Below, in pieces: positions 4,119 through 27,965 of a stretch of DNA of 32,000 nt. Position numbers and translations under genes: made by a program. Origin of the DNA: Thermodesulfobacteriota bacterium (GTDB lineage: Bacteria > Desulfobacterota > WTBG01 > JAGOGO01); assembly GCA_026625185.1 (NCBI GenBank), contig CP113000.1, forward strand, positions 120,001 to 152,000, written 5' to 3'. Every line of letters begins with the position of its first letter. Position 1 is the stretch's first letter. A model generated the notes under the pieces. That model was given only the letters and a program-made list of their open reading frames with translations. It was not told the origin of the DNA and ran no database searches.

Positions 4119-4652
4119 TCAAGAAATCAATTTATTCGCTTTTAAACGGCGCACCACTGCGGGAACCATTGCTGAGCCTAAACATCCGAAAATCACCGTC
4201 AGGGTTGAGTCCAAAATAGCCTTTTGCCAAATTATTCCCGTTTCCATTCCCATAAACCTTTCAATAAGAAAAAACGCTGCAAACCGGGTGAAGGATGCGA
4301 TGCCCCCCACAATGATACACCCCACATAGCTTGAGGTGAGGCGGGGATAAAAAGCCGCTCCCAGGTCAACAACAAGACCCGGACAGATGAATTTTAAAAT
4401 AAGCAAAGGCCCTTTGCCCAATCCCATCAAGGTGCTGAGCACGCCGGCGATAAGCCCAACCAGGGATGCAGCCCCCATTTTAGGCACACATCCACGCCCT
4501 AACAAAATGAAAAACATAACAAAAAACATAGCATGGCCGGGCACATTAAGTTTTAGACGGAGAAGTACCCGGGCAAGAATGATAAAGGTGGCACAGAATC
4601 CCAGGTAGAGAGCTTCGCGCAGAGTAAATTTCGCCTTAGTTAACTTGTTCAC
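4119..4652 (-). CDS. Small polytopic membrane protein; candidate substrate-capture (S) component of the adjacent ECF-type transporter
   Basis: 177 aa, about 5-6 hydrophobic helices, GTG start with AAGGA 10 nt upstream. Lies 6 nt after the preceding gene and is the last gene of the TBDR1-ECF operon. The S-component role is inferred from size, topology and context only. Confidence 0.6.
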   Translation of the reverse strand: MNKLTKAKFTLREALYLGFCATFIILARVLLRLKLNVPGHAMFFVMFFILLGRGCVPKMGAASLVGLIAGVLSTLMGLGKGPLLILKFICPGLVVDLGAAFYPRLTSSYVGCIIVGGIASFTRFAAFFLIERFMGMETGIIWQKAILDSTLTVIFGCLGSAMVPAVVRRLKANKLIS

Positions 4653-4658
4653 AATAAA

Positions 4659-5384
4659 CTAATCCTTATTCTTCGGCTTTTTCTTCTCTGGTGATCTCCA
4701 AAGCGTTCCTTCTTTTTGCACAAAAAATACGATTTCCTTATGATGAAGGTTAGGACGAATCCAATTCTGGGTATCAATAAGCTCATAGTCAGGCAGGGCC
4801 TCACCCAAAAGATTTATCACCCGGCTGATGGCAGTCTGGCTGAGAATATCCCCCACGCTCTTCACACCTTTGACCTCGCGGATGCCCTTTAATTCAATAA
4901 AACGCCCATCATTGCCGGTACTTCTGAGGCCAACACCAGCCATCGCGCCGATAAACCCCTGCCCGGTTCCTCCTCCCAACCAGATATACACACCGAGCCG
5001 ATCTGCTATCTCCCGTGCTTCCTCCATGGTCAACACTTCTTTCTGCGCCCGCATGCCAAACGTGCGCAGGTCTTCAGGCACAGCATCTTTTTCCGAAACA
5101 CAGAGGCCGGGGTCAGCCCCTTCATGAAAGTTTTGCAGTAAAAAGCCCTGAGCACACTCAGCTATTTTGTGCAAATCCCCGTTAGTAGGGATTCCCTCGA
5201 TGCAGGCGCTGCTATTATGCGAGGTATAGGGAATATCAGGGTGAACCAGAAGCTGATGCCTCGTCACACTGGTATTGCTCACCAGTCCTTTTTTCGTCAG
5301 TTCTTCGGCCAGCATACGGGAAAGTCGGCCCGTCCCGATGCTTTCCATATTATCGGTGTCATCAATGCAGATAAACACACTCAT
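4659..5384 (-). CDS. Hypothetical cytoplasmic protein (N-terminal FICIDDTDN motif, Gly-rich GGGTGQGFIGAMAGVG)
   Basis: 241-aa ORF with a strong SD (AAGGAGG). No signal peptide or TM segments. The IDDTD N-terminus is reminiscent of the TiaS/DUF1743-type N-terminal domain, but that is a weak from-memory resemblance. Confidence 0.6.
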   Translation of the reverse strand: MSVFICIDDTDNMESIGTGRLSRMLAEELTKKGLVSNTSVTRHQLLVHPDIPYTSHNSSACIEGIPTNGDLHKIAECAQGFLLQNFHEGADPGLCVSEKDAVPEDLRTFGMRAQKEVLTMEEAREIADRLGVYIWLGGGTGQGFIGAMAGVGLRSTGNDGRFIELKGIREVKGVKSVGDILSQTAISRVINLLGEALPDYELIDTQNWIRPNLHHKEIVFFVQKEGTLWRSPEKKKPKNKD

Positions 5385-5408
5385 CTTAAAACCTCCTTAC
5401 AAAACGGC

Positions 5409-6092
5409 TTATTGAACCAAATGATTATTTTCCACTCTCCGGGGAACCTGTCCACCAAATCCCCTCGCCTCTGCTGAAAGAGCAGATTCGTTTGCGGTTT
5501 TTATTGCCCGAATAATCAGGGGAATCATAATACACGAAAAGATATCTTGCCAGTTAAAAGGATTAAAGCACTGGCGAAGCGCAACACGCGCACCCCGGAG
5601 ACGCTGTATGAGGGCTATTTCGTGAAACTCCCGGGCAAAATACGGAACAAACCGGAAGCTGGTAAGAATAGCAAAAGCGATCGAAAAAGGCAAAATTCTC
5701 CGCAGACCCCGCATCAACTGGGAACTCGGGGTGGTTCGCAGAAAGATCGCGCCGGGAAGAAAAAATAAAAGAATTTGAATTGAGATACGCATTCCAATAA
5801 AGAACCCGTCAACACCCTGACGAATCATATACAACCCCACCACAATGGCCATCTGAATCAGGAAAAAACGAATGTCCTGGAAAAAGTCAATTGGTTTTAA
5901 ACGAGAAAGATAATAGGTAGCTCCATTGAGCAGCAACAATACACCAAGCGCCCACGGATCACGCGAGATAATTGCCCCTATACTCAGAAAAAACCAAAGC
6001 GTCAGCTTCCCTGCCGCCGGCAGGTGATGCATTGCTGAATCCGCTGAACGAAACTGATACGCGTGTCCAATGCCGCCGCTTTTACGATGCAT
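5409..6092 (-). CDS. ecfT: ECF transporter transmembrane (T) component, EcfT/CbiQ family
   Basis: Polytopic protein with the two characteristic Ala-Arg-Gly coupling-helix motifs (IQRLRGARV and SAEARGFG). Start moved to the ATG at 6092, which overlaps the ATPase stop by 11 nt. The 65 aa upstream in the ORF track lie inside the ATPase gene. Confidence 0.8.
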   Translation of the reverse strand: MHRKSGGIGHAYQFRSADSAMHHLPAAGKLTLWFFLSIGAIISRDPWALGVLLLLNGATYYLSRLKPIDFFQDIRFFLIQMAIVVGLYMIRQGVDGFFIGMRISIQILLFFLPGAIFLRTTPSSQLMRGLRRILPFSIAFAILTSFRFVPYFAREFHEIALIQRLRGARVALRQCFNPFNWQDIFSCIMIPLIIRAIKTANESALSAEARGFGGQVPRRVENNHLVQ

Positions 6093-7458
6093 AAAGTTTT
6101 CCTTTTTCCACGACCACGCGGCGGTCCGCCCAATTTTGAAGCGGCAACGAATCATGTGAAGCAATAAGAACGGTGGTTCCCCTGACACGCCGAAGTTCGG
6201 ACAGGATATCCAGTATCCGCTTTCGCAGCAGAAAATCCAGGCCAGAGAAAGGCTCATCAAACAGCAAAACTTCCGGATGGATGGCAATTGCCGAGGCCAG
6301 CGCGACCCGGTGCTGCTCGCCGAAGCTGAGTGTCAAAGGAGACTGCTCCGCAAAAAGGGGAATGTCACAAAGAGCAAGTGCTTCAGCGACGCGTTCATTA
6401 ATTTCTGGTTGAGAGAGTTTCATCCGCGTTAAGGAAAACGCTACTTCTGCAAAGACGGTATCCTCAAAAAGCTGGCGTTGGGGATTCTGGAACAAAAATC
6501 CGACCTTTCCCAGCAGGCGTTCCGGCCAGGGAGGGTTCATGCCGCCAATCCGAATGCTTCCCGCTTCAGGGGTTACAAACCCGACCAGACACCGGAGAAA
6601 AGTTGATTTACCCGCTCCATTCAGCCCAAAGAGGTGAATCAGCTCCGCCTGATAAACCTTGACCTGCGCGTCCTGAAAAATCAAAGGGTTCTTGGAAGCA
6701 GGTCCCGCGACACAGAGGCCCTCAACCACAATAGCGGTTTTTTTTTCTGAGCTCGAAGCGCTTTCCTCCTTTTGCCGGTCATACGAGCTTTGAGACGGCG
6801 ATGGGATATTAACTTCTTGATGGTGTTGGCCGTTTTTCAGAAAAATAAAACGGTTGGCGATATTCTCATAGGGATTTAAATCATGGTCAGTAACAAGCAG
6901 GGCCTGCCCTTGCTGTTTGAGGCTTTTCAGAACCGCCATCAGGCGTTCTTTTCCGGGGGCATCCAGTTGGCAGGTTGGTTCATCCAGAAGTAATAAACCC
7001 GGCTTCATCGAGAGCACTGAGGCAATGGTTAAACGATGCTGCTCCCCTGCGGAAAGTTCCTCTACATTTCGTTTCTCGAACCCTGACAAGCCCACCGCTT
7101 CTAAAGACTCATGCACCCTGCCGGCTATCTGATCGGCGGGCAAACCAAGATTTTCCGGTCCAAACGCCACTTCATCTTCAACCGTGGTGCAAAGGATCTG
7201 AGATTCCGCGTTCTGAAAAACCATGCCGACAGCGACATTACTGCTGCTGTCGGCAATTCGGATAGTTCCTTCGGTCGTCCCGCCCCGCAAAAGCCCCTGG
7301 ATGGCCAGAAGAAGCGTGGTCTTGCCGCACCCGGAGGGGCCGCTTAAGCATACGCATTCGCCGGCAGCAACGGAAAACGAGATTTTTTCAGAAAATACCG
7401 GCGCTTCTTTTTCCGGATAGGTATAAAAAAAATTGCTGACCTCCAGAATCGGCGTCAT
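6082..7458 (-). CDS. Fused double ABC ATPase (EcfA-EcfA'/CbiO-type)
   Basis: Two complete nucleotide-binding domains. Walker A: GPSGCGKTT and GLNGAGKST. Signatures: LSAGEQHRL and LSFGEQHRV. Walker B: LLLDEP and LLFDEP. Confidence 0.9.
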   Translation of the reverse strand: MTPILEVSNFFYTYPEKEAPVFSEKISFSVAAGECVCLSGPSGCGKTTLLLAIQGLLRGGTTEGTIRIADSSSNVAVGMVFQNAESQILCTTVEDEVAFGPENLGLPADQIAGRVHESLEAVGLSGFEKRNVEELSAGEQHRLTIASVLSMKPGLLLLDEPTCQLDAPGKERLMAVLKSLKQQGQALLVTDHDLNPYENIANRFIFLKNGQHHQEVNIPSPSQSSYDRQKEESASSSEKKTAIVVEGLCVAGPASKNPLIFQDAQVKVYQAELIHLFGLNGAGKSTFLRCLVGFVTPEAGSIRIGGMNPPWPERLLGKVGFLFQNPQRQLFEDTVFAEVAFSLTRMKLSQPEINERVAEALALCDIPLFAEQSPLTLSFGEQHRVALASAIAIHPEVLLFDEPFSGLDFLLRKRILDILSELRRVRGTTVLIASHDSLPLQNWADRRVVVEKGKLYAS

Positions 7459-7485
7459 CCTTTTAAATCAACAACCTCTTTCTTT

Positions 7486-9513
7486 CTAAAAGGGAATTTC
7501 CATCCCTCCATAGACAAATCGTCCTGCTTGAGGAAAAGCATAACTTTCTTCATACTTCTCATCGCAGACATTATCAACTCCCGCGTATAAATGCAATCTC
7601 CGGTTAAATAATGCTTGATCCACTTTCATGTTAAGGATGGTGAAATTGCCTAATTTCTTCTTTTGCAGAGGGGTGTTTTTGGAATAAAAATATTGGTCAG
7701 CCACCCGCGTCAAATTCACGTTGGCGGACAATCCGAAGTCAAACAAATAATTTCCTTCAGCCGTGAACTTATGTATCGGCCGGTATTGCAACTCGTCTTT
7801 TTCGCTTCCCGTGGACCGGTCTCTGGTGTGAAGGAAGGTATAGCCCAGGCGCACCATTAGGTTTTTGAAAAACCGGTTTTCCCCCATAATTTCAATGCCC
7901 TCAAAAAGGTATTTATCATTGTTTTGGTACCGGTCGACACTCGACGAAATAGCAACCTTTTCAATGTAATTTTTAACATCAGTATAGAATCCCGTCAGAC
8001 CGACTTTGGTTTGCCAGGGAAGGTTCTGCTCGATCCCGGCTTCATAATTATACGAGGTCTCGGTGCTCAAGCCAGGATTGCCGCTCTGCTCGTCGTAAAG
8101 CTGGCTGATAGAGGGGAACCGCGTCTTCCGGGCCGCCGAACCTTTTATTCTGGTGTCTTTGGTTAGGTCATAATAAAGGCCGGCAAGAAAATTCCAGTCG
8201 TGGTCGTTGCCGCCGCCGTCCTTTTCAAGCCAGTTGTGCCGGTATCCCAGCACCAGACCGGCGTGGTCGAACAACGTGACGTTGTACTCCAGAACTGCTG
8301 AAGAGACATCAAGGTCTTTGTCATCATCGAAATAGCGAAACGCATATTTTTTGGGTTTGGTTTTGGGAATCTCGACATCACGGATTTTCCCCTCGGAATC
8401 CCAGGATTCTCTCCGTCCGTTAAAGCCAAGGGTGAAAAATCCCCATGACTCCAAATCGTATTTTACCTGCATATTTGCACCGGTAATCCTGGAGTCGTCT
8501 CTCTCGTGGTAAGTTCCCTTGATCAGGGGGTCATCCATGGTTCGGTAGTGATTGTCATCATACCCCTTTTTATTTTCGCGCAGTTGATTGACGTACACCC
8601 AGGACCTCAGCTCCAATGGCCCGGGGACATCATAGGTGATCGCCACATGACCTGAAATTCCTTCCAAATCATCCACCCGTTCATATTTTGACTTGCTGGC
8701 AAAGTCATCAGTGCCGTTAATGGTGCTGGGGGGTTTGCCGAATTCACTTCGATAATATTGAAAGACCATGCCGATATCGAGATCATCACGGGGTGAATAG
8801 CCCCCCTGGGCGAAATAGTTCTGTCTTCTTCTAAAACTGTTTTCCCTCAAACCCCCGTTCTCTTGGTCGGTGGGGGTAAAATCATCAGCCAGCCTGAACC
8901 CGTTGGTATTGTACGCGCTGCTGCTCAGAAAAAAATTCATTTTATCGGAAGAACCGGATACAGTACCCCGCACAAGGGAAGTTTCTTCCTCTCCCCCTTC
9001 GCCGCTTAGGGTCCCATGAATGCCCTTCCGGCTCCCCTTTTTGGTAACAATGTTGATAACCCCGCCCAGATCTCCTTCTCCGTAAAGCAGGGAACTGTTT
9101 CCCCCCATCATTTTTATCTTGGCAATATTTTCCACCGGTATCAGGGTGGGATCGTACTGGCCGTCGACCGTAGAGTTAAGCGGGATGCCGTCAAGCAGGA
9201 TAAGGGTGTGACGGGGCTTGAACCCCCGGTAATCTACCCGGGGAACGCCCTCGCCTCCGGTTCTGATATTTACCCCGGGAAGCAACTGCAGCGCTTCATC
9301 AATTGTTCTGGCGTCCCTATTTTGTATGTCCTCAGCAGTGACTTCCCGGGTTGTTCCGACTGATTCTACTGCCGGTTTTTCGGCAGAAACTACAATTTCC
9401 CCTAAGGTATAGGTTCCGGTAGCATCATCAGTCTGACCAAAGGTTACTTGAGCCCCACTCAAAATTAATTCATATGCTAACAAACTTACCATAAAAAATA
9501 ACCATCGTCTCAT
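7486..9513 (-). CDS. TonB-dependent outer-membrane receptor (TBDR1)
   Basis: Signal peptide, TonB-box-like TLGEIVVSA, plug motifs (IDEALQLLPGVNI, LILLDGIPLN, GGVINIVTKKG). Long beta-rich barrel ending in an aromatic residue (...GGMEIPF). Strong SD GGAGGAG. Confidence 0.9.
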   Translation of the reverse strand: MRRWLFFMVSLLAYELILSGAQVTFGQTDDATGTYTLGEIVVSAEKPAVESVGTTREVTAEDIQNRDARTIDEALQLLPGVNIRTGGEGVPRVDYRGFKPRHTLILLDGIPLNSTVDGQYDPTLIPVENIAKIKMMGGNSSLLYGEGDLGGVINIVTKKGSRKGIHGTLSGEGGEEETSLVRGTVSGSSDKMNFFLSSSAYNTNGFRLADDFTPTDQENGGLRENSFRRRQNYFAQGGYSPRDDLDIGMVFQYYRSEFGKPPSTINGTDDFASKSKYERVDDLEGISGHVAITYDVPGPLELRSWVYVNQLRENKKGYDDNHYRTMDDPLIKGTYHERDDSRITGANMQVKYDLESWGFFTLGFNGRRESWDSEGKIRDVEIPKTKPKKYAFRYFDDDKDLDVSSAVLEYNVTLFDHAGLVLGYRHNWLEKDGGGNDHDWNFLAGLYYDLTKDTRIKGSAARKTRFPSISQLYDEQSGNPGLSTETSYNYEAGIEQNLPWQTKVGLTGFYTDVKNYIEKVAISSSVDRYQNNDKYLFEGIEIMGENRFFKNLMVRLGYTFLHTRDRSTGSEKDELQYRPIHKFTAEGNYLFDFGLSANVNLTRVADQYFYSKNTPLQKKKLGNFTILNMKVDQALFNRRLHLYAGVDNVCDEKYEESYAFPQAGRFVYGGMEIPF

Positions 9514-9773: not shown

Positions 9774-10466
9774 ATGGATTTTATCCTCGAAGGGTTTCGT
9801 CAGGCGCTCAATCTCATCGTATCGTTAGACCAGGAAGTTCTTGGTATCGCCTTTCTTTCTCTATGGGTCTCAACCTCGGCTACCATCTTTGCTTCTTTTA
9901 TCGGGGTTCCCCTCGGGTTTGTCATTGGAGCTACCCAATTTCCGGGAAAGCACATGACCATTACTTTTTTTAACACCCTCCTGTCCTTTCCCACGGTGGT
10001 AGTAGGGCTTTTGGTTTTTGCTTTTATTTCCCGACAGGGCCCGTTCGGTTTTTTGGGTATTCTCTTTTCGCCAACCGCGATGATTATCGGCCAGTTTATC
10101 CTGGTTATCCCCATAATAACCGCGCTTACTATTGCAGCCGTGCAGGGGGTTGATCGGAGAGTACGATTGACTGCCCTTACCCTCGGCGCTAACCGGATGC
10201 AGACCAGCATTACGGTCTTGAACGAAGCCCGGTTTGCCCTCATGGCCGCTATTATTGCGGGATTCGGCCGAATCGTTGGCGAGGTTGGCGCGGCGATAAT
10301 GCTTGGGGGTAATATCCGGAATTACACCCGAACGATAACCACCGCGATTGCTCTGGAAACCAGCAAAGGTGACTTTGGCTTCGCTATTGCCCTGGGAATA
10401 ATTTTGATGATTGTCTCATTTGCCGTCAATATCCTTTTCCGCTATTTTCAACAAAGAGGAAGTTAA
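9774..10466 (+). CDS. tupB: Tungstate-type ABC transporter permease (TupB-like)
   Basis: 230-aa, 5-6 TM permease with the TupB-typical segment LGANRMQ...GFGRIVGEVGAAIMLGGNI. TupA-type binding proteins and a TupC-like ATPase lie in the same window. Confidence 0.75.
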   Translation: MDFILEGFRQALNLIVSLDQEVLGIAFLSLWVSTSATIFASFIGVPLGFVIGATQFPGKHMTITFFNTLLSFPTVVVGLLVFAFISRQGPFGFLGILFSPTAMIIGQFILVIPIITALTIAAVQGVDRRVRLTALTLGANRMQTSITVLNEARFALMAAIIAGFGRIVGEVGAAIMLGGNIRNYTRTITTAIALETSKGDFGFAIALGIILMIVSFAVNILFRYFQQRGS

Positions 10467-10535
10467 TGAATAGGCATGCAGGGAATGACACCACCGATTG
10501 GAAGGCCTTTCCCCGACCACGAGAAAAAAATGCCC

Positions 10536-10564
10536 TTGACATACCTTTCATTCAGACTTATCAT
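10536..10564 (+). promoter_or_regulatory. Candidate sigma70 promoter for the MoSto-like gene
   Basis: TTGACA (10536-10541), exactly 17 nt, TATCAT (10559-10564), 76 nt before the ATG at 10641. Confidence 0.4.
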
Positions 10565-10640
10565 CACAGAATAAAAGGGTATTCCGACACTATGACCCAA
10601 GCAAAATTAACAAAAAGATAGTTTCCTTAAAAAAAATTCC

Positions 10641-11498
10641 ATGGCACGGTTGATAAAGGAAAAAAACGAAAAGGGCAGACTCCATATTGATTCTCTTCTC
10701 ATGGGAGAATCTCTGGTAAGTAAGGATTTCCTCCAGCGGACCAAGGCCAAAGAACAGTTCCGGATGCATCCGGATATTAATGTTTTAAAAATAGGTGGCC
10801 AAAGCATTATCGACCGTGGGCGTAAAGCTCTGCTCCCTATCATTGATGTGCTGGTCCAAGCTAAAGAGAAGTATAAAATCTTATTGATGACCGGCGGTGG
10901 CAGCCGGGCTCGTCATGTCTATCATATTGGTATTGATCTGGGGATGTCTCCGGGGATTCTTTCTAAGCTGGGGGACAGAGTAGCCTGGCAAAACGCGATT
11001 ATGCTTGCAGTGGTTTTGTCTAAATACGGGGGGATAAAAATTTCGACCGGGGACGACCTGCAGCAGTTGACCATGTACTGCCAACTGGGATATATCCCGA
11101 TCACCGAAGGGATACCGCCTTATGGACTTTTTGAACATCCACCCGAACATGGTTCTATACCTCCGCATCGGACCGACTGCGGGGCTTTTCTGTTGGCGGA
11201 AAATATCGGGGCACGATCATTGATTTATCTCAAGGACGAAGCCGGGCTCTATGAAAGCGATCCCAAGAAGGTAAAAAAAGCAGATCGTAAAAGGCTCAGG
11301 TATTTTGATCGCATCTCAGCCCGTGAGCTTCTTAAATTGGATCTCGACGACCTGGTGATTGAACGTCCCATCATTCATTTTCTACAAAAGGCTCAGTCCA
11401 TCAAGGAACTTCAGATTATTGATGCGCTCCGGCATCCTGAACACATTCTTGCCGCCCTTGAAGGAAAGCACGTAGGTACTATTATTTACCAAGATTAA
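10641..11498 (+). CDS. Molybdenum/tungsten storage protein (MoSto, MosA/MosB-like), amino-acid-kinase/UMP-kinase fold
   Basis: Collinear blocks that I recall from A. vinelandii MosB: VLKIGGQSIIDRGR, LLMTGGGSRARHVY, GIPPY, GSIPPHRTDCGAFLLAE, LKDEAGLYESDPK, GKHVGTIIY. Recalled from memory, not searched. Confidence 0.75.
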   Translation: MARLIKEKNEKGRLHIDSLLMGESLVSKDFLQRTKAKEQFRMHPDINVLKIGGQSIIDRGRKALLPIIDVLVQAKEKYKILLMTGGGSRARHVYHIGIDLGMSPGILSKLGDRVAWQNAIMLAVVLSKYGGIKISTGDDLQQLTMYCQLGYIPITEGIPPYGLFEHPPEHGSIPPHRTDCGAFLLAENIGARSLIYLKDEAGLYESDPKKVKKADRKRLRYFDRISARELLKLDLDDLVIERPIIHFLQKAQSIKELQIIDALRHPEHILAALEGKHVGTIIYQD

Positions 11499-11531: not shown

Positions 11532-11741
11532 TTAAGTCTGCTTCCCGGTCTTGTCACCTTGATGAGTGAGGTAGACTATTTCAGCTCCAGTGATTGTGGC
11601 AATTTCATTGAGCTCTTGTTGACGAATGTGAGTAAGGTGGATCTTTAAATCGCTACCGCTCACCCCAACGACGCGAAATCGAGGTTTTTTTTCACCTTCT
11701 TGGCTTTTGCGTCTTTCTCGGACAAAAATTTTTGTATCCAT
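11532..11741 (-). CDS. Small basic hypothetical protein (69 aa)
   Basis: Strong SD (AAAGGAGG) 7 nt before the ATG. Divergent from padR. No family recognised. Confidence 0.55.
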   Translation of the reverse strand: MDTKIFVRERRKSQEGEKKPRFRVVGVSGSDLKIHLTHIRQQELNEIATITGAEIVYLTHQGDKTGKQT

Positions 11742-11804: not shown

Positions 11805-11820
11805 AAGAATATATATTCTT
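11805..11820. promoter_or_regulatory. Perfect 16-bp palindrome AAGAATATATATTCTT; candidate PadR autoregulatory operator
   Basis: Located 10 nt upstream of the padR ATG, abutting its SD, in the 88-nt divergent region shared with the 69-aa gene. Confidence 0.4.
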
Positions 11821-11829
11821 TAAGGATAT

Positions 11830-12216
11830 ATGTCAAGAAAAAAAATACCCATAAATAAACCGACTCCGAAGCATCCATCCCAAGGAAAACAGGAGCGTTA
11901 CATCCAGCCCTCCATTTTGATGGGCCTTTTCTTCAAGTCCTCTTACGGATATGAATTGATTCATAATATTCAAAGCTTTGGTTTTGTGGAGGGGCAGGCG
12001 CCGCCGGGAATGATCTATCGTCATTTACGTCAGATGGAAGAAGATGGGTTAGTGTCTTCGAAATGGAAGACCGAGGGGACCGGCCCGGCAAAACGCGTCT
12101 ATTGGATAACCCCTGAAGGCAAAGAGGTACTCGGGGTCTGGATCGAATATATGAAAGGACAGGCTAAAAATTTAACTACCTTCATTAATCACTATCAGGC
12201 AGTACAAAAAAAATAA
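11830..12216 (+). CDS. PadR-family transcriptional regulator
   Basis: Winged-helix PadR pattern: SYGYELIHNI ... PGMIYRHLRQMEEDGLVSSKW ... KRVYWITPEGKEVL. SD AAGGA. Confidence 0.85.
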   Translation: MSRKKIPINKPTPKHPSQGKQERYIQPSILMGLFFKSSYGYELIHNIQSFGFVEGQAPPGMIYRHLRQMEEDGLVSSKWKTEGTGPAKRVYWITPEGKEVLGVWIEYMKGQAKNLTTFINHYQAVQKK

Positions 12217-12289: not shown

Positions 12290-12967
12290 ATGGGAAAATA
12301 TCTTTTCAAAATCGAGGATCTCACCCATATATATGAGGACCGTACTATTCTCAATATTTTCTCCCTTGCCTTTGAAGAGAAAAAAATCCACGCCATCACC
12401 GGTCCCAATGGCTCAGGGAAAACAACCCTCTGTAATATCCTGGGCCTGCTTTTAAAACCTACCTTCGGTAAGATTTGGTATCAGGAGGAGATGTTTTATG
12501 AAAATGGAGGCCTTCCTGAGAGACTGCGAAAAAAAATTACCATGGTCCATCAAAACCCTTTTCTTTTCCATACCACGGTAGAAAAAAATGTGGCGTATGG
12601 TCTCAAAGTGCGTAACTACTCCCATTCTCAGCGGAACCAAAAAGTCGCATCATTCCTTAAGCTCATGGGAATAGAGCATCTTCGGCACCAGCAAGGAACC
12701 CGTCTTTCGGGCGGAGAGACTCAGCGAGTAGCAGTGGCAAGAGCTTTGGCAATTGATCCGGAAGTATTAATCTTGGACGAATTCACTGCCAATGTGGACC
12801 GAAACTACGTCAAGATCATAGAAGGAGTAATACAGGATGTTTTTCGGCAAAAAAATATCACTATTTTCTTAGTCACTCACGACGAAAACCAAGCCTCCCG
12901 GATCGCGCATACGGTTACTCATCTCATTGACGGTGAGGTAGTGGACCACTCGTCTCTATCCCATTAA
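12290..12967 (+). CDS. tupC: ABC transporter ATP-binding protein (TupC-like)
   Basis: Walker A GPNGSGKTT, signature LSGGETQRV, Walker B LILDEF. The 225-aa single-NBD size is typical of TupC. The tupC assignment rests on context with tupB/tupA. Confidence 0.7.
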   Translation: MGKYLFKIEDLTHIYEDRTILNIFSLAFEEKKIHAITGPNGSGKTTLCNILGLLLKPTFGKIWYQEEMFYENGGLPERLRKKITMVHQNPFLFHTTVEKNVAYGLKVRNYSHSQRNQKVASFLKLMGIEHLRHQQGTRLSGGETQRVAVARALAIDPEVLILDEFTANVDRNYVKIIEGVIQDVFRQKNITIFLVTHDENQASRIAHTVTHLIDGEVVDHSSLSH

Positions 12968-15104: not shown

Positions 15105-16451
15105 CTAAAAAGTAACCACCGTCTGGAAATAAACCCAGTCGGCATCATCAGAGCTGCCGGTATCCTTAACATATTCTCCGCAGAAAAAGTGAGCGTACCC
15201 ACCTTCAAGAGTCAAAAAGCTAAGGGGCTTACAGGTCATGACCACGTCCAACTCATCCCCCACATAATCCGACACATCGGCCGAGGTGCCTTTGCGTATC
15301 TTCTTGCCCGAAGCGTTATACCAGGCGTCTTCGGTTTCATCCAGATAAAATCTATGATACTGGAGAGATCCTTTCAGGCGGTCTTTAATAGGCGTAAAAT
15401 CCAGGAAACAAGCAACCTCTTTCACGTTTTGCCAGCGAAAAAAGTCAATAATGCCATAAGGCTCGTGGGTAGATTGAAATAAAGGAATAAAAGTTTCAGA
15501 TTTCCCGTCATGCGGCTTGTCGTCGCCGCTGGCAAAGTTGTATTCAATCTTCGCGACCGGTTGAGCAAAACAGTTTTTAAAGGTGTAATTGATATCCCCG
15601 TGCCAGGCATAGGCCTTAATCGTATCGGTTGCTTTATCACCAAGCTGCCAGGCAAATTCGTAACCATAACCCAAAGCATCATAGCACGGCAGCTTACCTT
15701 CACCCCGTGTTCCCAGGGTGACGCGTTCAGAATCGCCATTCTGTTGGTCCTCACCGGTTACCTCCCGATGTTTATCAATAAGGTTTAAGGCGTACAGATC
15801 AAAAACCGATCCCTTAATTCCTTTAAAGGTGGAGTAAACACCGAAAAAGTGTTCGCCAAACTTACCGTCATTAAAATGTCTATCAAGATATTGAACCACG
15901 TTCCCCCAAAACAGGTCAACATCAAACAAATTTGGGTTATAGGTGAGCTTAAAAGCGTCAAAGGAACGCATCAAATTTGGCCACGCAGAACAATGCACCA
16001 AGCGTTTAGCCCCGTAACTTAATTCTTGCCTTCCAATCTTCAGACTCACGGGAAGGTCATTGGGCTTTGATAATAAAAAATATAATTGGTGGAGATCGAA
16101 ATCGTCTTTCTGTGGTTTGGGGCTCACATCTGAGTCCCACTCCCGACCATCCAATCCCTCAAAAAAAAGCAAAACCTTATCATTGATATTTGCGCCCACG
16201 TTGAACCTGGTGCGGGCATAGACGTATCCGTCCTTGTCATTAACGTCATCGTCAAAATCGAAATCCTTCTTATACTCATAGCGGAGACGATACTCGCCTC
16301 CCCAGGTGATTTTTACATTATCAAATTTAAACTCCTTAATCGTTTTAGGCAAAAGCCCTGCATTTTCAGCGCCGAACGCTGTCCCCCCAAAACTCATTAT
16401 ACAAACAACGAAACAAATTTCTAATGCCCAAAAATAGTTCCGTTTCCTCAT
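15105..16451 (-). CDS. Outer-membrane beta-barrel porin (alginate-export/AlgE-like family candidate)
   Basis: Signal peptide (MRKRNYFWALEICFVVCIMSFGGTAFGAEN), WGGEYRLRYEY-type first strand, alternating beta pattern throughout, C-terminal ...FQTVVTF. Start placed at the second ATG (16451), which has a GGGAGAG SD. The track ORF starts 7 codons earlier at 16472. Confidence 0.8.
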   Translation of the reverse strand: MRKRNYFWALEICFVVCIMSFGGTAFGAENAGLLPKTIKEFKFDNVKITWGGEYRLRYEYKKDFDFDDDVNDKDGYVYARTRFNVGANINDKVLLFFEGLDGREWDSDVSPKPQKDDFDLHQLYFLLSKPNDLPVSLKIGRQELSYGAKRLVHCSAWPNLMRSFDAFKLTYNPNLFDVDLFWGNVVQYLDRHFNDGKFGEHFFGVYSTFKGIKGSVFDLYALNLIDKHREVTGEDQQNGDSERVTLGTRGEGKLPCYDALGYGYEFAWQLGDKATDTIKAYAWHGDINYTFKNCFAQPVAKIEYNFASGDDKPHDGKSETFIPLFQSTHEPYGIIDFFRWQNVKEVACFLDFTPIKDRLKGSLQYHRFYLDETEDAWYNASGKKIRKGTSADVSDYVGDELDVVMTCKPLSFLTLEGGYAHFFCGEYVKDTGSSDDADWVYFQTVVTF

Positions 16452-16514
16452 GTTCTCTCCCTTTTTCGACATTAGTTTTTTCTAAATTAAAATCTAAAAC
16501 CAATTGATTTCGGC

Positions 16515-16906: not shown

Positions 16907-17752
16907 TCAATTATTTTTTCCAACTGCTTCGGGGATAGCGGTGGGGATAAAAAGTGGTTGACCGAACTTATCTTTTCCAAACTCCCGGATTATCTTCTGG
17001 CCTTCGGTTGAGGTCAGCCAGCCAATGTAGGCCATAGCATAAACATATTTAACCTGAGGGAACTTGGCGGGATTAACCGCAATCACACCGTACGGGTTGT
17101 TTAAAACCGGGTCACCTTGGCAGAGAATTTTTAATCCGATTTTTCCTCCATAGGCCAAGTAAGTTCCCCGGTCTGATAAAGCATACGCCTGTTTCTCGTT
17201 CGCCATCGTCAAAACAGGTCCCATGCCTTGGCCGGCTTCCATATACCATTTCCCTTGGGGCTTGATTCCCGCCTTTTCCCAGATCTTTAATTCTTTTTTA
17301 TGAGTTCCCGAATCGTCTCCCCGGGATATAAAAGGCGCGTGGGCAAGTGCGATCTTCTTCAAGGCTTCCTTAGCATCAGTTGTACCTTTGATCTTGGCTG
17401 GATCCTTTTCCGGCCCAATGATAATAAAATCATTGTACATAACGAACCGCCGGTTAACACCCGAGCCATTCGCGACAAACTTATCTTCTGCCTCACGAGC
17501 GTGTACCAGAACCACATCAACATCTCCCCGTGCGCCCAGCTCCAAAGCCTTTCCGGTTCCCACGGAAATCACGTCTACCTTAATATTCATCATCTTTTCA
17601 AAGGGCGGATTAAGTGACTGAAGGATCCCGGTATCCTCAGTGCTGGTAGTGGTGGCTAATCGAAGCCGCAGTTCTTCAGCACGAATAATTCCTGTGGTAC
17701 TAATTACGAAAAGCACCAAAACCATAAAAACTAATCCCCATTTTTTTCCCAT
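16907..17752 (-). CDS. tupA: Tungstate ABC transporter substrate-binding protein TupA (canonical)
   Basis: Signal peptide, TupA signature LATTTSTEDTGIL, VLVHA, SRGDDSGTHKKELKIW. SD AAGGAGG. Confidence 0.85.
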   Translation of the reverse strand: MGKKWGLVFMVLVLFVISTTGIIRAEELRLRLATTTSTEDTGILQSLNPPFEKMMNIKVDVISVGTGKALELGARGDVDVVLVHAREAEDKFVANGSGVNRRFVMYNDFIIIGPEKDPAKIKGTTDAKEALKKIALAHAPFISRGDDSGTHKKELKIWEKAGIKPQGKWYMEAGQGMGPVLTMANEKQAYALSDRGTYLAYGGKIGLKILCQGDPVLNNPYGVIAVNPAKFPQVKYVYAMAYIGWLTSTEGQKIIREFGKDKFGQPLFIPTAIPEAVGKNN

Positions 17753-17853: not shown

Positions 17854-18684
17854 CTACTCCCCAAAACATTGGGAAGCTGAAAAGTACAAGGGCTCACCAA
17901 ACTCTTCCCTTCCAAAGGTAGCAATGATCTTTTGCCCTTGTGCACCCCTCAAAAATTCAACAAATTTTTTTGCCGGCTCATAGTTCGCTTGAGGATACAT
18001 TGTCGGGTTAGTTGTGAGTGCATGGTATCGATTGATAAGCATCGAGTCACCTTCGAAAAGGACCGCAAGGGTTAAGGCGTGGTTTTCCTTGCGCGCCACA
18101 ATATAGGTTGACCGATCCACCATAAAATAGCCGTTTTCATTCGCTGCCTTCTGAAGCGAAGCCATCATAAAATCTTTTGAGGTTCGATACCAGCTACCGG
18201 CGGGTTTTATTCCCGTTTTTTCCCAGATACCCAGTTCCTTTTTGTGAGTGCCGGAGTTATCTCCGCGGGTAATGAAGACTGCCTCTTTCTCAGCGATCTT
18301 CTTATAGGCACAGAGGACATCCTTACACTCCTTGATTGCCGCTGGATCTTCCTTGGGCCCCAGAACAACAAAATCATTGCCGCCAATATACGTCCGGTTA
18401 AGCGCCCAGCCTTCTTCTACGCCCTTTGCCTCTTCAGCCGGAGCATGCACCATAATGACATCAACCGTTCCGCTCTTAAGCATCTGTAACGACTCGCCTG
18501 AACCCGCCTTGGTCACGTTCAGTTCACAAGGAATCTCCTTTTTAAACTCGGCAAAAAGGGCATCCACCAACCCTAACTCATAGGGCGAACCAGTAGCCAA
18601 ACGTAAGGTGGTTGCCAAAAGAGAAGAAGGCACTACTAAAACCATCGGTAAAACAAAAAGTAAAAATATTCGGACCAATCTCAT
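17854..18684 (-). CDS. TupA-family periplasmic binding protein paralog lacking the TTTS motif
   Basis: Collinear with TupA1 (IMVHAP, TRGDNSGTHKKELGIWEK, GIKP.G.WY). The N-terminal anion-binding motif is LATGSPYELGLVDAL instead of ATTTSTEDTGIL. Signal peptide and SD GAGGAG present. Confidence 0.8.
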   Translation of the reverse strand: MRLVRIFLLFVLPMVLVVPSSLLATTLRLATGSPYELGLVDALFAEFKKEIPCELNVTKAGSGESLQMLKSGTVDVIMVHAPAEEAKGVEEGWALNRTYIGGNDFVVLGPKEDPAAIKECKDVLCAYKKIAEKEAVFITRGDNSGTHKKELGIWEKTGIKPAGSWYRTSKDFMMASLQKAANENGYFMVDRSTYIVARKENHALTLAVLFEGDSMLINRYHALTTNPTMYPQANYEPAKKFVEFLRGAQGQKIIATFGREEFGEPLYFSASQCFGE

Positions 18685-18727: not shown

Positions 18728-19459
18728 TTATTTAACGTATTTGTCTTTATACTCTTTCCAGGAAAAGTCGCTGACCGGTGTAACGGTGAAGACTTCCTTT
18801 TCCGGGGCCGTAAGAATCCGGACCGTCACGCACCGGGACATTGCCTCATACTGAGCATTGGCTTCCGGGTCGGTATCTTTTTTTGCTCTTAACTCTTGCA
18901 TCTCCTTGGGGAATTGAAATGTTGTGGTAAGTTTAATCGCTTTGCCGGTGCTCATGCCGGCAAAAATATAGCAGGAATCACCGATGGTTTTGTCAAACGC
19001 CAAATTGCCGTTAAACGCCCCTTCTGACCCTTTACCGTAGCGAGCGCCGGTCAGGTAACTGATCGCATCCGCAGGACACGCCCGCGGAGTGCCGCTCACC
19101 ACAAATTGATCACCCCGCAGAGGAATTTCTCCCGGATAGAGCTGTGCTAATGCAATCTGAGTAGCGCGGTAACCGAGCGCTATTCCCGGGCAGACGTGAC
19201 CATGAAATTTTTCCAGATCCCCAAAGGTAAGGGTGATATTTTTGATAGTGGCGCACTGAGGCTGCGCGCCTTCTTTGCCCTTATCAAATTTATGTTGTGG
19301 CTTTTCTTGCCCCGGTAGCTTCACGGTAATGGTGGGGATTCCTTCCCACGTGCCACCGCCACCCGCAAGTGCTTTTGTCACCCATGGCAGGACGCAGAAG
19401 GATAGTAAGGCGATAAAAGTAATGGTAATGCCCAAGCAAACTTTTCTGTAATGTTTCAT
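18728..19459 (-). CDS. Exported or membrane-anchored FmdE-domain protein
   Basis: FHGHVCPGIALGYR is the hallmark of the FmdE family (formylmethanofuran dehydrogenase subunit E-like). N-terminal hydrophobic signal/anchor MKHYRKVCLGITITFIALLSFCVLPWVTKALAGGGG. SD AAGGAGG. Confidence 0.75.
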   Translation of the reverse strand: MKHYRKVCLGITITFIALLSFCVLPWVTKALAGGGGTWEGIPTITVKLPGQEKPQHKFDKGKEGAQPQCATIKNITLTFGDLEKFHGHVCPGIALGYRATQIALAQLYPGEIPLRGDQFVVSGTPRACPADAISYLTGARYGKGSEGAFNGNLAFDKTIGDSCYIFAGMSTGKAIKLTTTFQFPKEMQELRAKKDTDPEANAQYEAMSRCVTVRILTAPEKEVFTVTPVSDFSWKEYKDKYVK

Positions 19460-19541
19460 ACTGTGTCCTCCTTGTTATAAAAATTTTTTATATGCGTCAA
19501 AACGATGTGCCCATATGGGCAAGGAAAAGCTTTTGCTAAGC

Positions 19542-20303
19542 TCACTCAAGTCGGTAGATTATCGGCACGCGCACTTCGGCCCTAACCGGCGGCTTGGGGA
19601 AGGGTGCTACTGCCTCTACCGTTTTAACCACATTATCATCCAGCACGTCAAACCCTGAACTCTTGGCGATCTTTATAGTGGTAGCGTTTCCATTTTCCAA
19701 AATTATGAACTCTATGATCACTTTCCCTTGCCAACCCATTCGCTGCGCCCTTGCTGGGTAGGTAATATTTTCTTGGATGATTTTTTTGATATAAGCAAAA
19801 TGCTCACTCAGATACTTTTTTCTAAGTGAATCGGCCGAAATCCCTCCCGTACCATTACCGGCCCCCCCCACCAAACCTCCCCCTCCTCCAAGGCCGGTGC
19901 CGCAAGCAGACTGGTCTCCGGTACCGGGAAGTGTTTCCGTCAGCGGTTGAGTCTTCGGAACCTCGGCTGAAGCTATCGGTACCGGACCTTGCTCCTCAAC
20001 GGGGGTTACAATTTTAGGCTCCGAACATTCATCTACCTTCTTTTCCAGTTGCCTAATCTTTTGCACTATTTTTGGGTTTTCTATTGGTTTTGGTTTATCC
20101 GGTTCCGGCATTTTGGGGGCGAGCAAAACTTTTTCATCTTTCGGAGGCCCGGGAGAATTAATGACCGATTCCAGAATGCTTAAATCAATAATCACCGGTT
20201 TAGTATTCATCAAGGCGCTGGTCGTTCCGATAACCCCGGCCAAAACAATAACCACGGTATGGATAATTAAAGAAACTAAAAACCCGCACGCCTGGCGCTT
20301 CAT
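19542..20303 (-). CDS. tonB: Energy transducer TonB
   Basis: N-terminal TM anchor, Pro/Lys-rich spacer (PKMPEPDKPKPIENPK), Gly-rich linker. C-terminal TonB domain: AQRMGWQGKVIIEFIILENG...SSGFDVLD...PFPKPP. Confidence 0.85.
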   Translation of the reverse strand: MKRQACGFLVSLIIHTVVIVLAGVIGTTSALMNTKPVIIDLSILESVINSPGPPKDEKVLLAPKMPEPDKPKPIENPKIVQKIRQLEKKVDECSEPKIVTPVEEQGPVPIASAEVPKTQPLTETLPGTGDQSACGTGLGGGGGLVGGAGNGTGGISADSLRKKYLSEHFAYIKKIIQENITYPARAQRMGWQGKVIIEFIILENGNATTIKIAKSSGFDVLDDNVVKTVEAVAPFPKPPVRAEVRVPIIYRLE

Positions 20304-20680
20304 CGCTTAATCTCGGTTTGAAGGCTTACCTTGGTAAATCCTAAAGTTTTTACTAAATCAAGCACATCCACAAATACCTGGAGCGCAATTTCCCGATCCG
20401 CCTTGATAAGAACAGGATTGTTTTTATCCAACTTCTGCATTGAGTCTTGGAGGCTTTCTATGGTCATGGGCCGGGAATTGAAATAGATCAGCCCGTTTTT
20501 ATCTATCTCAACGGTCTGAATCTTCAGGGTCATTTCCTGCTTATGCGCTGCCCGGGGAAGGTCTATTGGAATAACGCCTGTGGCAATAAAGGTGGAGGTG
20601 GTAAGCACAATCGTTAAAAGCACCAGCATCACATCAACCAACGGGATTACGTTGATATAATCAAATTCCTTTTCTTCCAT
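20300..20680 (-). CDS. exbD: Biopolymer transport protein ExbD/TolR
   Basis: 126 aa, [20 protein letters not shown] segment plus periplasmic domain. 4-nt overlap with tonB. Confidence 0.85.
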
Positions 20681-21095
20681 GCCTTATCTCCCATTTCATC
20701 ATGATCACCTTCACCCGCCTCAACAGCACGTTATAAAGAACCACCGACGGTATGGCCACCAGTAACCCCACAGCCGTCGCCTTTAAGGCCAGAGCCAGGC
20801 CAATCATGATTTTATTGGTATCCATAAAGCCTTCTTTGCCCATGGTGTAAAAGGTCAACATGATGCCCAGGACGGTTCCCAACAACCCGATATACGGAGC
20901 ATTGCTTCCCACGGTGGCGATAATATGAAGTTTCGCGGTGAGTTTAAGTTCCAGGGTCTTTAAATCAGAAAAATCTCTTACCTTGATGTGCCGGTACACC
21001 AGAAACCGCTCAATGGCGATACCCACCGATAACACACTCATAAAAACTAAAACTCCGATTATTCCGTAATCAACGATTGCTTTAAGCCAGTCCAT
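20661..21095 (-). CDS. exbB: MotA/TolQ/ExbB proton-channel protein (short form)
   Basis: 144 aa, three TM segments, [19 protein letters not shown] motif. 20-nt overlap with exbD. Confidence 0.85.
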
Positions 21096-22564: not shown

Positions 22565-24325
22565 TTAATTAAAATGATATCCCTTAACGTCGTTTTCTAA
22601 ACAACCCCCAATATAGATCACGCCCATGGATTTTTCACTTTCTTTTTCCACCACTTTCGGAAGATCGCCCAAGGTGGTTCGCACGAGCGTTTCTTTTTCT
22701 TTACGGCCTGAATTATAAGCAATCGCCGCCGGCGTGGCCTCCGGATAATACTTCTGCAATGTGGGCATGAGGTTTGGCATCTCCCTCAACCCCATGAAAA
22801 TCGCCATTGTTTCACCCTTATCGGCAATCGCTTTAATTAACGCTTCGTTATTTTTAAAGCCATCCGGCGCGATAACCACGATGGTTCCTTTGCATGACAC
22901 ATCCCTTCCCGTAAGAGCATTGGAAGCGTTGAAAGCGCTCAAGCCCGGCACAATTTTCGTGTCCTCGTCTGGCAACGAAGCCTTCAACCATCGCCAGCAC
23001 GTGCCAAAGATAGTAGGATCGCCATAGTCCAAAAACGCCACGTTCTTCCCTTGCGCCAGAGCGTCCTTGACCGTCGTGAGCACCTTATCCCGCTCAGCCT
23101 TCAGTGATTTTTGGAGCTCGTCTTGAGAGAGCTCAGGATGGTTCTTTTTAAAGACCCACTCCATGTAATCTTTATGGTTAAACAGGATCGGCTTTTCTCC
23201 GATATAACGAGCAAATCTCGTCTTCATCTCATCCGGACAGATAAAAACATCAGCCCGGGCAAGGTAAAACAAGGTATCCATGGTGAGGAGGCTCGTGTCA
23301 CCACAGCCCATGCCCATGATGTAGAGTTTTGCATGAGGCTTAATGGTTATGGCCTCTATTTTCGACACGGCTTTTACCCAGCGGCCGGCAGAAAGGCCAT
23401 CCGGGGCGACAAATGCGAATTTGCCGGATTTTTCTAAAGGATGGTTATCGGCGGTATCGGCAATGATCAGGCGGCGCTCTCCCAGCAGATTGAAGAAAAG
23501 CTCTCCATAGGATATAAGGGAACGATATCCGTCCGGATCTGAGACCAAGAAGACCGTGTTTGGATCCGAAGCAACTCCTGCTTTTTCAATGAGTTTCCTT
23601 ACCGAGACCCCGCTAAACTTTTTTAGTTTTGGCGTTCCATTTCCTTCGCCCCTTTGCTTCACGTCCACGTCAATCCGGGGAAAATCAGATAAATTTTTGA
23701 GGGTAAAGGTATTCTTTACTGCTCCCGTGACTGTCACCTCCGAAGATGAGAGCGTTTCTGTCTTTTTAAAAATAAGTCCGGAAGCCACTTTAAGGACCTC
23801 AATCTGGCTTACTTCATTTAAGGAACGATCGGGAAAAATATCATTGGCAATAACCAGCTTGGGAAATCCCATCGGGGATTTGGCGCCTTCAGCGCCGGTA
23901 TCAACCTTGGGGTTCTTCGCGTGAATAGTTGATAGCGCAATCACCACGTCACCGGGATTATGGTCCAGCACTTCTCCCCACGAAAGGACCGTCTGGCTCC
24001 CCTTTTTATTCTTAACCACAATCGCTAAATCTATGGGTTTGAAAAAATTTGCATCTTCATCTTTCTGCACGCACGCCAGTTCAAGCAGGTTCTTCAAAGG
24101 CACACCCCGGAAATACACGTCACCCTCGGAATGTCCTTCGCTGTTGGCGACTTCATTATACCGCACGAAAAGTGACTGCATGTTTTCAAGGTCCTGTAAG
24201 GTTACAAAGAGAGGTTGTTGCACCATGCCGGTAACGGACAAAACCGGCAGGACGCCTGCCCATCCTTTTACACCGACAAGCAAGAGAAACGCCAGTGAGA
24301 AAAGCACCATTATTTTTTTTCGCAT
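22565..24325 (-). CDS. Secreted fusion protein A: signal peptide + two YedY/sulfite-oxidase-like beta domains + C-terminal CbiF/CobM-like tetrapyrrole-methylase fold
   Basis: Signal peptide MRKKIMVLFSLAFLLLVGVKGWAG. Domains at about aa 27-180 and 196-328 carry VTG.V..P...L.DL / GV.L..L...AG / DGY.S..SYGEL / vKavskIE patterns. Aa 333-576 are collinear with precorrin methylases (YIMGMGCGD, LDYGDPTIFG, VPGLSAFNASNALTG, ETMAIFMGL, TPAAIAYN...TLVRTTLGDL, GVIYIGG). Confidence 0.8.
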   Translation of the reverse strand: MRKKIMVLFSLAFLLLVGVKGWAGVLPVLSVTGMVQQPLFVTLQDLENMQSLFVRYNEVANSEGHSEGDVYFRGVPLKNLLELACVQKDEDANFFKPIDLAIVVKNKKGSQTVLSWGEVLDHNPGDVVIALSTIHAKNPKVDTGAEGAKSPMGFPKLVIANDIFPDRSLNEVSQIEVLKVASGLIFKKTETLSSSEVTVTGAVKNTFTLKNLSDFPRIDVDVKQRGEGNGTPKLKKFSGVSVRKLIEKAGVASDPNTVFLVSDPDGYRSLISYGELFFNLLGERRLIIADTADNHPLEKSGKFAFVAPDGLSAGRWVKAVSKIEAITIKPHAKLYIMGMGCGDTSLLTMDTLFYLARADVFICPDEMKTRFARYIGEKPILFNHKDYMEWVFKKNHPELSQDELQKSLKAERDKVLTTVKDALAQGKNVAFLDYGDPTIFGTCWRWLKASLPDEDTKIVPGLSAFNASNALTGRDVSCKGTIVVIAPDGFKNNEALIKAIADKGETMAIFMGLREMPNLMPTLQKYYPEATPAAIAYNSGRKEKETLVRTTLGDLPKVVEKESEKSMGVIYIGGCLENDVKGYHFN

Positions 24326-27872: not shown

Positions 27873-27965
27873 CAAGTTTTCCCTTTCTTCTATCCCTTAC
27901 CATTATCCCCTTTACCTCTCTTTTTGGAAAAGAGGGGGGGCTGGGGGATCTTAAATCTCTATACC

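Follow-up and report, generated by a model that had tools for sequence, protein, structure and literature searches.

The MoSto-like gene and its family

The window analysed here is a 32,000-nucleotide stretch of a Thermodesulfobacteriota genome (assembly GCA_026625185.1, contig CP113000.1, positions 120,001 to 152,000), and the gene of interest, at 10641-11498 on the plus strand, encodes a relative of MoSto, the molybdenum storage protein of Azotobacter, whose alpha and beta subunits are MosA and MosB. It lies downstream of a permease gene (9774-10466, +) and is followed by a small minus-strand gene, here called orf69 (11532-11741), by a gene for a PadR-family regulator (11830-12216, +) and by an ATP-binding cassette (ABC) ATPase gene (12290-12967, +). 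Apart from MoSto, no protein is known to assemble polyoxometalate clusters with the help of ATP and to hold them. The experiments in the literature searched are confined to Azotobacter MoSto, as the original prediction had supposed, and the same literature yielded no study of a solo MoSto, no link of MoSto to Desulfobacterota or methanogens and no mention of partner proteins. MoSto has been stated to have "no known homologs" (PMC6448029). The pipeline of the Joint Genome Institute (JGI) already labels proteins of the present type "molybdenum storage protein", so that the homology itself is not new; in NCBI records relatives go by the name "uridine kinase" or "amino acid kinase family protein".

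The open reading frame (ORF) starts with ATG and comprises 285 codons, filling exactly 10641-11498. In a sequence search of the Protein Data Bank (PDB), its best match among solved structures was A. vinelandii MosB (2OGX, 4F6T and 6GU5 chain B; E 3.7e-62, 213 bits), ahead of MosA (E 1.1e-42, 149 bits) and of the top uridine monophosphate (UMP) kinase (E 6e-09, 39 bits). Residues 15-282 align with MosB residues 7-267 with small gaps only, which bears out the collinearity originally claimed, and the identity amounts to 42-43% with MosB over the full length, 35% with MosA and about 25% with UMP kinase. Pfam returned the generic AA_kinase domain alone, and the NCBIfam pyrH models fell far short of their cut-offs (pyrH_arch 57.9 versus 158; pyrH_bact 21.6 versus 243.9).

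An alignment with MosA, MosB and a UMP kinase places two further features in the window protein, an N-terminal arm of about 45 residues and a PPY...IPPHRTD insertion; the UMP kinase lacks both, although it shares the fold and the ATP motifs. At the sequence level the ATP motifs of the amino-acid-kinase fold, also present in MosB, are kept as K50-I-G-G53, T84-G-G-G87, R177-T-D179 and K198-D...D207-P-K209, corresponding to the family forms KxGG, TGGG and RTD and to the KDxxGLYxxDPK motif. The pattern of insertions and deletions is of the beta type, like that of MosB and unlike that of MosA. The window protein and its closer relatives differ from MosB in a five-residue insertion at 215-219 and an HPEH motif. 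Among 25 homologues about 75% identical to it the mean column identity is 84%, indicating strong purifying selection, and the arm is almost invariant within this group.

The position of the protein in its family was examined by an exhaustive search of 1.84 billion representatives clustered at 50% identity, followed by a neighbour-joining tree with 200 bootstraps, in which the A. vinelandii MosA and MosB sequences were rebuilt from printed alignments and the genuine UMP kinases of two loci, L013 and L014, served as outgroups. Only 53 clusters matched at E <= 1e-30, and the MoSto-like group is therefore small. The MoSto family is monophyletic with respect to the UMP kinases (bootstrap 100). Within it, AvMosA and the cluster P0152 form the alpha clade (bootstrap 99), AvMosB and P0124 form MosB proper (bootstrap 91), and the window protein with its ~75%-identical homologues (the window clade) groups with the sister clades P0123 and P0122 (bootstrap 83), outside MosB proper. 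The window lineage thus stands on the non-alpha, beta-like side of a tree whose deeper nodes lack resolution. Judged by similarity, profile scores and phylogeny, the gene is a genuine member of the MoSto family, resembles MosB more closely than MosA and does not encode a UMP kinase, in agreement with the original prediction.

The relatives of the window protein come from a different kind of host than MosB, which belongs to an aerobic diazotroph. The window host is of the anaerobic Desulfobacterota type; the nearest genome relatives, 92-96% identical, are metagenome-assembled genomes (MAGs) named "uncultured delta proteobacterium", and the ~75%-identical ones are MAGs of Syntrophobacteraceae and Desulfobacteraceae. 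P0152 was the one alpha-type cluster among the full-length 50%-identity representatives examined, and all organism-named alpha-type proteins are proteobacterial, being annotated across many Alpha-, Beta- and Gammaproteobacteria. Further clades that look solo (P0133, P0131 and P0159) occur in the methanogen Methanocorpusculum, in Candidatus Glassbacteria and in Candidatus Alcyoniella, and they extend the MoSto family to archaea and candidate phyla.

Gene number and conserved neighbours

The original prediction held that a single subunit gene is present, and a tblastn search with the window protein found no second MoSto-like sequence in the 32 kb window. The question was extended to 87 related loci. 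A metagenome scan, which took the best 80 of 472 confirmed matches, all 80 from the window clade or its two sister clades, supplied 79 of these loci; the other 8 belong to reference genomes and long contigs. Eighteen family queries, MosA and MosB included, were run against up to 8-10 kb on each side, and exactly one MoSto-family gene was found in 86 of the 87 loci. The exception, L055, carries two copies (5711-8849) arranged around orf69, padR and a further orf69; since these copies are 97.6% identical, they represent a recent duplication or an assembly artefact, and an independent split into alpha-like and beta-like genes was rejected. In canonical loci, on the contrary, mosB is followed by mosA 12 bp on (3/3: Azotobacter chroococcum, Methylocystis bryophila and Candidatus Nitrotoga). 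UMP kinases, which represent the ancestral fold, are homohexamers. Given the single gene in nearly all loci as opposed to the adjacent pair in canonical ones, it is plausible, from gene content, that the window protein forms a homo-oligomer. The claim of a single gene stood for the flanks searched, but it overlooked conserved partners that may belong to the system, namely orf69 and a TCKD-like protein, both absent, as is PadR, from canonical mosBA loci.

orf69 encodes a basic protein of 69 aa belonging to no known family; it lies directly downstream of the MoSto-like gene, convergent with it, and is preceded by a perfect AAGGAGG Shine-Dalgarno sequence. It accompanies solo MoSto-like genes almost without exception. 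Among loci with enough flank, 26/27 of the window clade have a homologue beside the MoSto-like gene, and it is found in 10/10 P0123-type and 3/4 P0122-type loci; in the P0123-type clade it stands immediately upstream of the MoSto-like gene on the same strand. The reverse search, starting from orf69 homologues, found padR and a MoSto-like gene adjacent in all four long contigs. No orf69-like ORF occurred in the canonical mosBA loci, and no fusion of orf69 with MoSto was found.

The orf69 family comprises about 710 clusters, every one of them labelled "hypothetical". Its core is basic and invariant (F-R-E-R...G-E-K-K-P-R-F-R..G..G) and is followed by a variable charged tail. Sequence and profile searches gave no significant match in Pfam, NCBIfam or the PDB. 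The predicted structure is moderately confident (predicted local distance difference test, pLDDT, 78; predicted template-modelling score, pTM, 0.63) and shows a beta-beta-beta-alpha-beta order with a flexible basic loop, for which Foldseek found no neighbour in the PDB (best E 0.15). A TOBE/Mop identity was considered for the size of the protein and rejected for want of any TOBE similarity.

Divergent from orf69 is the PadR gene (Pfam PadR, 2.1e-15), present in 26/27 window-clade loci and in none of the sister clades. The palindrome ATATTCTTTAAGGATAT at 11813-11829 is a candidate PadR operator, overlapping both the padR start and a promoter-like site of orf69, the minus-strand match at 11836-11808. 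In many relatives a palindrome with the consensus ATATCCTT-N-AAGGATAT lies over the padR start codon in the same place. The candidate is a single site in the window, where no such palindrome was found upstream of the MoSto-like or transporter genes. Its overlap with the orf69 promoter-like site suggests that PadR may control orf69 and itself. A perfect 16-bp palindrome, AAGAATATATATTCTT, at 11805-11820 also overlaps the ATATCCTT-N-AAGGATAT motif at the padR start. In P0122-type loci (e.g., L087, 2423-2854) the place of PadR, as the small regulator-like protein that recurs nearby, is taken by a DUF134 protein with a zinc-ribbon tail (3/4 loci).

Upstream of the MoSto-like gene there is a consensus-like promoter motif, as originally described: a sigma-70-like match, TTGACA-17-TATCAT (11/12), at 10536-10564 (+), ending 77 nt before the ATG. 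The match is invariant in four close relatives, yet the whole spacer is 94% identical among them, and its conservation is thus not discriminating. Public records annotate a 51-aa ORF at 10466-10621 (+), in the stretch that separates the permease gene from the MoSto-like gene; as its frame is broken by a 4-nt indel in relatives of 92-96% identity, it is probably non-coding and was rejected as a gene.

The TCKD-like partner emerged from a clustering of all ORFs within 5 kb across 91 loci, in which a family of ~244 aa proteins, termed c1, appeared as a recurrent neighbour of MoSto-like genes (20/27 window-clade and 6/10 P0123-type loci). In the P0123-type clade c1, orf69 and the MoSto gene follow each other in the same direction; the usual order in the window clade is MoSto, orf69 (opposite strand), PadR and c1 (opposite strand). 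The homologue in the window, at 4659-5384 (-), shares 36% identity with the c1 representative (E 6e-37), and its Pfam TiaS_TCKD score exceeds the gathering threshold (30.1 versus 27 bits); among solved proteins that contain TCKD it matches 3u02 (E 2.4e-08) and TiaS (1e-04), and it reaches 48.9 on the TiaS equivalog model against a cut-off of 600. The c1 representative, which comes from other loci, had no Pfam match. According to the Pfam and NCBIfam descriptions, TCKD is an ATP-using kinase domain in TiaS.

In the window the c1 homologue is 5.3 kb away from the MoSto-like gene, at the end of a minus-strand operon for a TonB receptor and an energy-coupling factor (ECF) transporter; in L006, a 96% identical relative, c1 is directly upstream of the permease gene (tupB) and divergent from it. 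The apparent single operon at 4119-9513 (-) encodes a TonB-dependent receptor, a two-domain ECF-type ATPase, a CbiQ-like T component, the TCKD-like protein and a 177-aa protein. The receptor matches vitamin B12 receptors best, below threshold, the 177-aa protein has a weak ABC_cobalt match, and it is unusual for a TonB receptor and an ECF transporter to occur together.

Molybdenum and tungsten genes around the module

According to the original prediction, the MoSto-like gene sits between tupB and tupC, and tungsten rather than molybdenum may be the stored metal. The upstream permease (9774-10466) is TupB-like; it scored 243 bits with NCBIfam ABC_perm1 and 215 bits with TupB, under the equivalog cut-off of 320 but well above ModB (92 bits). 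The ATPase at 12290-12967, the presumed partner of the permease, is a short protein of 225 aa with a Pfam ABC_tran domain and no TOBE domain, and it is generic: the TupC model gave 123 bits against a cut-off of 400, and ECF and PstB models score higher. Two genes absent from the original prediction, orf69 (minus strand) and padR, lie between the MoSto-like gene and the ATPase gene, and the placement of the MoSto-like gene between tupB-like and ATPase genes recurs only in the 92-96% identical relatives. Elsewhere, the module of MoSto, orf69 and PadR adjoins Tup, Mod or MOT1 transporters, or none.

A bona fide tungstate-binding protein, TupA, is encoded at 16907-17752 (-), 5.4 kb from the MoSto-like gene, on the opposite strand and in another operon. 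It matches Geobacter TupA (3LR1) with E 4.5e-92, and TupA is its sole NCBIfam match. TTTS, Arg118 and Thr124 constitute the TupA signature (PMC4139814), and the alignment with 3LR1 conserves it within ATTTST and SRGD..SGTH. A paralogue at 17854-18684 (-), which matches 3MUQ and 3LR1 in the PDB and NCBIfam TupA with 157 bits, has ATGSPY in place of TTTS and keeps the RGD..SGTH part, so its ligand may differ.

For the wider family, molybdenum and tungsten (Mo/W) genes within 5 kb were counted at loci flanked on each side by 3 kb or more. Such genes were nearby in 15/22 window-clade and 5/8 P0123-type loci, and in the window clade their types were mixed (TupA 6, ModA 4, MOT1 6, ModE-like HTH_17+PBP_like 3). 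In L095 the module lies among MOT1, XdhC, a MobA-like gene, FmdE, three molybdopterin oxidoreductases and ModA/ModB-like genes, and in L101 a Mod system lies on one side of the module and a Tup system on the other; cofactor genes among such neighbours include MobA-like, XdhC and MoCF_biosynth ones. Molybdate/tungstate transport genes are likewise near the Nitrotoga mosBA locus. The mixture of transporters ties the MoSto-like family to Mo/W handling in general and makes a preference for tungsten over molybdenum a local inference, not a family trait. With TupA 5.4 kb away in another operon, the claimed preference is not sustained beyond a reasonable local guess that tungsten is the metal stored in this window.

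Next to the TupA genes lies a gene for an outer-membrane protein of the Alginate_exp family (15105-16472, -; Pfam 1.2e-69), a candidate for the channel by which molybdate or tungstate would cross the outer membrane. In Candidatus Nitrotoga (L100, 8745-10484) a protein of the same family adjoins modABC beside mosBA. On the other side of the TupA genes, Pfam and NCBIfam identify an FmdE-domain protein together with TonB, ExbD and ExbB (18728-21095, -). Farther along the window, at 22565-24325 (-) and 26118-27875 (-), there are two paralogues, each about 585 aa long, in which a molybdopterin-binding Oxidored_molyb domain is fused with a tetrapyrrole methylase domain; their surroundings include a second TonB-dependent receptor (28018-30135) as well as a PBP_like protein of the ModE type (31131-31826).

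Proposed function and alternatives

The reading that we prefer, and hold to be moderately probable, is that the window protein forms a homohexameric Mo/W cage powered by ATP; more tentatively, orf69 and the TCKD-like protein would be its accessories, and PadR would repress orf69 and itself. Six identical subunits would assemble as a UMP-kinase-like D3 hexamer around a cavity, and by analogy the homohexameric architecture of the UMP kinases is the likely template for a single-gene MoSto. In Azotobacter MoSto, ATP catalysis is reportedly the task of the beta subunit. The ATP site kept in each subunit of the window protein would correspond to the site of Azotobacter MosB at which molybdate is activated and from which it is driven across the wall of the cage. 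ATP would thereby power the loading of molybdate or tungstate, presumably brought here by the Tup-type transporter, and the metal would be kept in polyoxometalate clusters until molybdo- and tungsto-pterin enzymes needed it. Azotobacter MoSto binds more than 100 Mo and can also accumulate W; its loading requires ATP, and its release does not (PMC6448029, PMC4504029).

The roles of the neighbours are more speculative. The strongly basic orf69 might act as a cap, a nucleation factor or a release factor, the TCKD-like protein might serve a nucleotide-dependent loading or hand-off step, and PadR might repress orf69 and itself through the palindrome at the padR start codon. The recurrent linkage suggests that the MoSto-like gene and orf69, often with the TCKD-like protein, make up an unstudied multi-part version of the metal store. 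Speculatively, orf69 and the TCKD-like protein could replace functions of the alpha subunit (locking of the ATP groove, nucleation of clusters) or provide regulated release and hand-off. A stronger version would put the solo MoSto-like proteins of anaerobic bacteria, whose relatives reach methanogens and candidate phyla, at the centre of an undescribed system with three components, namely the homohexameric ATP-driven cage, orf69 and the TCKD-like protein; the small partners would replace alpha, for instance in locking the ATP site or in nucleating or releasing clusters, and the Azotobacter cage would be a derived special case. This version is possible although doubtful.

Several observations weigh against a homohexameric store. 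The MosA cluster anchors Glu129, His140 and His156 correspond to Ser135, Tyr146 and Gly162 in the window protein, and Met-beta149, which is said to be a proposed gate in the cage wall of MoSto, corresponds to Ile158, with Ile throughout the clade; the position is Met in the P0122, P0123 and P0124 clades and Phe in alpha. His-alpha140 is presumably the ligand of the cluster on the threefold axis of MosA. The solved sequences agree in residue type with these sites (Met at beta-149; Glu, His and His at alpha-129, 140 and 156). Glu-alpha129 and His-alpha156 anchor clusters, the Mo8 cluster among them, covalently in Azotobacter MoSto (PMC4504029). Furthermore, the AlphaFold monomer, built with 25 close homologues, reached a pLDDT of 43.5 and was not used, and one relative, L005, has a MoSto-like gene with neither the partners nor Mo/W genes within 10 kb. 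The evidence for a single copy covers flanks of up to 8-10 kb, and the support as a whole consists of sequence and gene context, by which oligomeric state, ATPase activity and metal binding are predicted.

The missing anchors speak for the main rival, according to which the protein would keep the MoSto fold and its ATP chemistry without being a bulk store. It would be an ATP-dependent enzyme that activates or hands off molybdate or tungstate, or a sensor, and together with orf69 and the TCKD-like protein it would channel the oxyanion into cofactor synthesis or tell W from Mo. Such a function would suit the linkage to two accessory proteins that canonical MoSto lacks, one of them related to an ATP-using kinase domain of TiaS, and the MobA-like, XdhC and MoCF_biosynth cofactor genes found near some of the modules. 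However, MosB itself lacks the three anchors, and many clusters in Azotobacter MoSto occupy non-polar pockets without covalent ligands (PMC4504029), so the absence of alpha-type ligands does not exclude storage. Nothing points to another substrate. We consider this rival rather unlikely.

The preferred homohexamer must also be set against a hetero-oligomer, in which the window protein would be one subunit and a second MoSto-family subunit would be encoded elsewhere in the genome. Azotobacter MoSto requires both subunits (an established fact; PMC6448029), and the scans of the genome collection and of metagenomes covered the best loci, those of the genome collection, searched with the single protein, being close relatives. 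A hidden partner nevertheless seems distinctly improbable in view of the single copy in 86/87 loci, the near identity of the sole duplicate pair (97.6%), the constant adjacency of canonical mosB and mosA, the homohexameric state established for UMP kinases, and the finding of one alpha-type cluster among the full-length representatives examined from the library of 1.84 billion, organism-named alpha-types being proteobacterial. Least probable of all, to the point of being barely worth entertaining, is an ordinary UMP kinase or other amino-acid-kinase enzyme that merely resembles MosB; the generic AA_kinase match and the NCBI names would fit it, but they are outweighed by the scores (213 bits for MosB versus 39 for UMP kinase, and pyrH models far below cut-off), by monophyly with MosA and MosB at bootstrap 100, by the MoSto-specific arm and insertion and by the Mo/W genomic context.

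If a homohexameric store of this kind is widespread in W/Mo-dependent anaerobes, the single-gene form would show what a minimal cage requires, whether the alpha subunit is dispensable or has been replaced by small partners, and how strict anaerobes buffer their supply of W and Mo. Factors for loading or release are not known even from Azotobacter, and orf69 and the TCKD-like protein offer concrete candidates that can be tested. Metagenomes of sediments and wetlands contain the family in abundance, and it may hence matter for trace-metal cycling there.

A separate group of stores is formed by the molbindin/TOBE proteins Mop and Tub, the latter of which, from Eubacterium limosum, has been described as the first characterised physiological tungstate store (PMC11980592). 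They resemble the proposed system as small cytoplasmic Mo/W stores linked to Tup/Mod transport, but their fold is unrelated, and their binding of a few mononuclear oxyanions takes no ATP; orf69 matches them in size and shows no TOBE similarity. Finally, P0144, a protein of 732 aa, carries at its C-terminus a MoSto-like domain (37% identity with the window protein) that is fused to a multi-pass membrane domain, and this fusion hints at membrane-coupled forms of the family.

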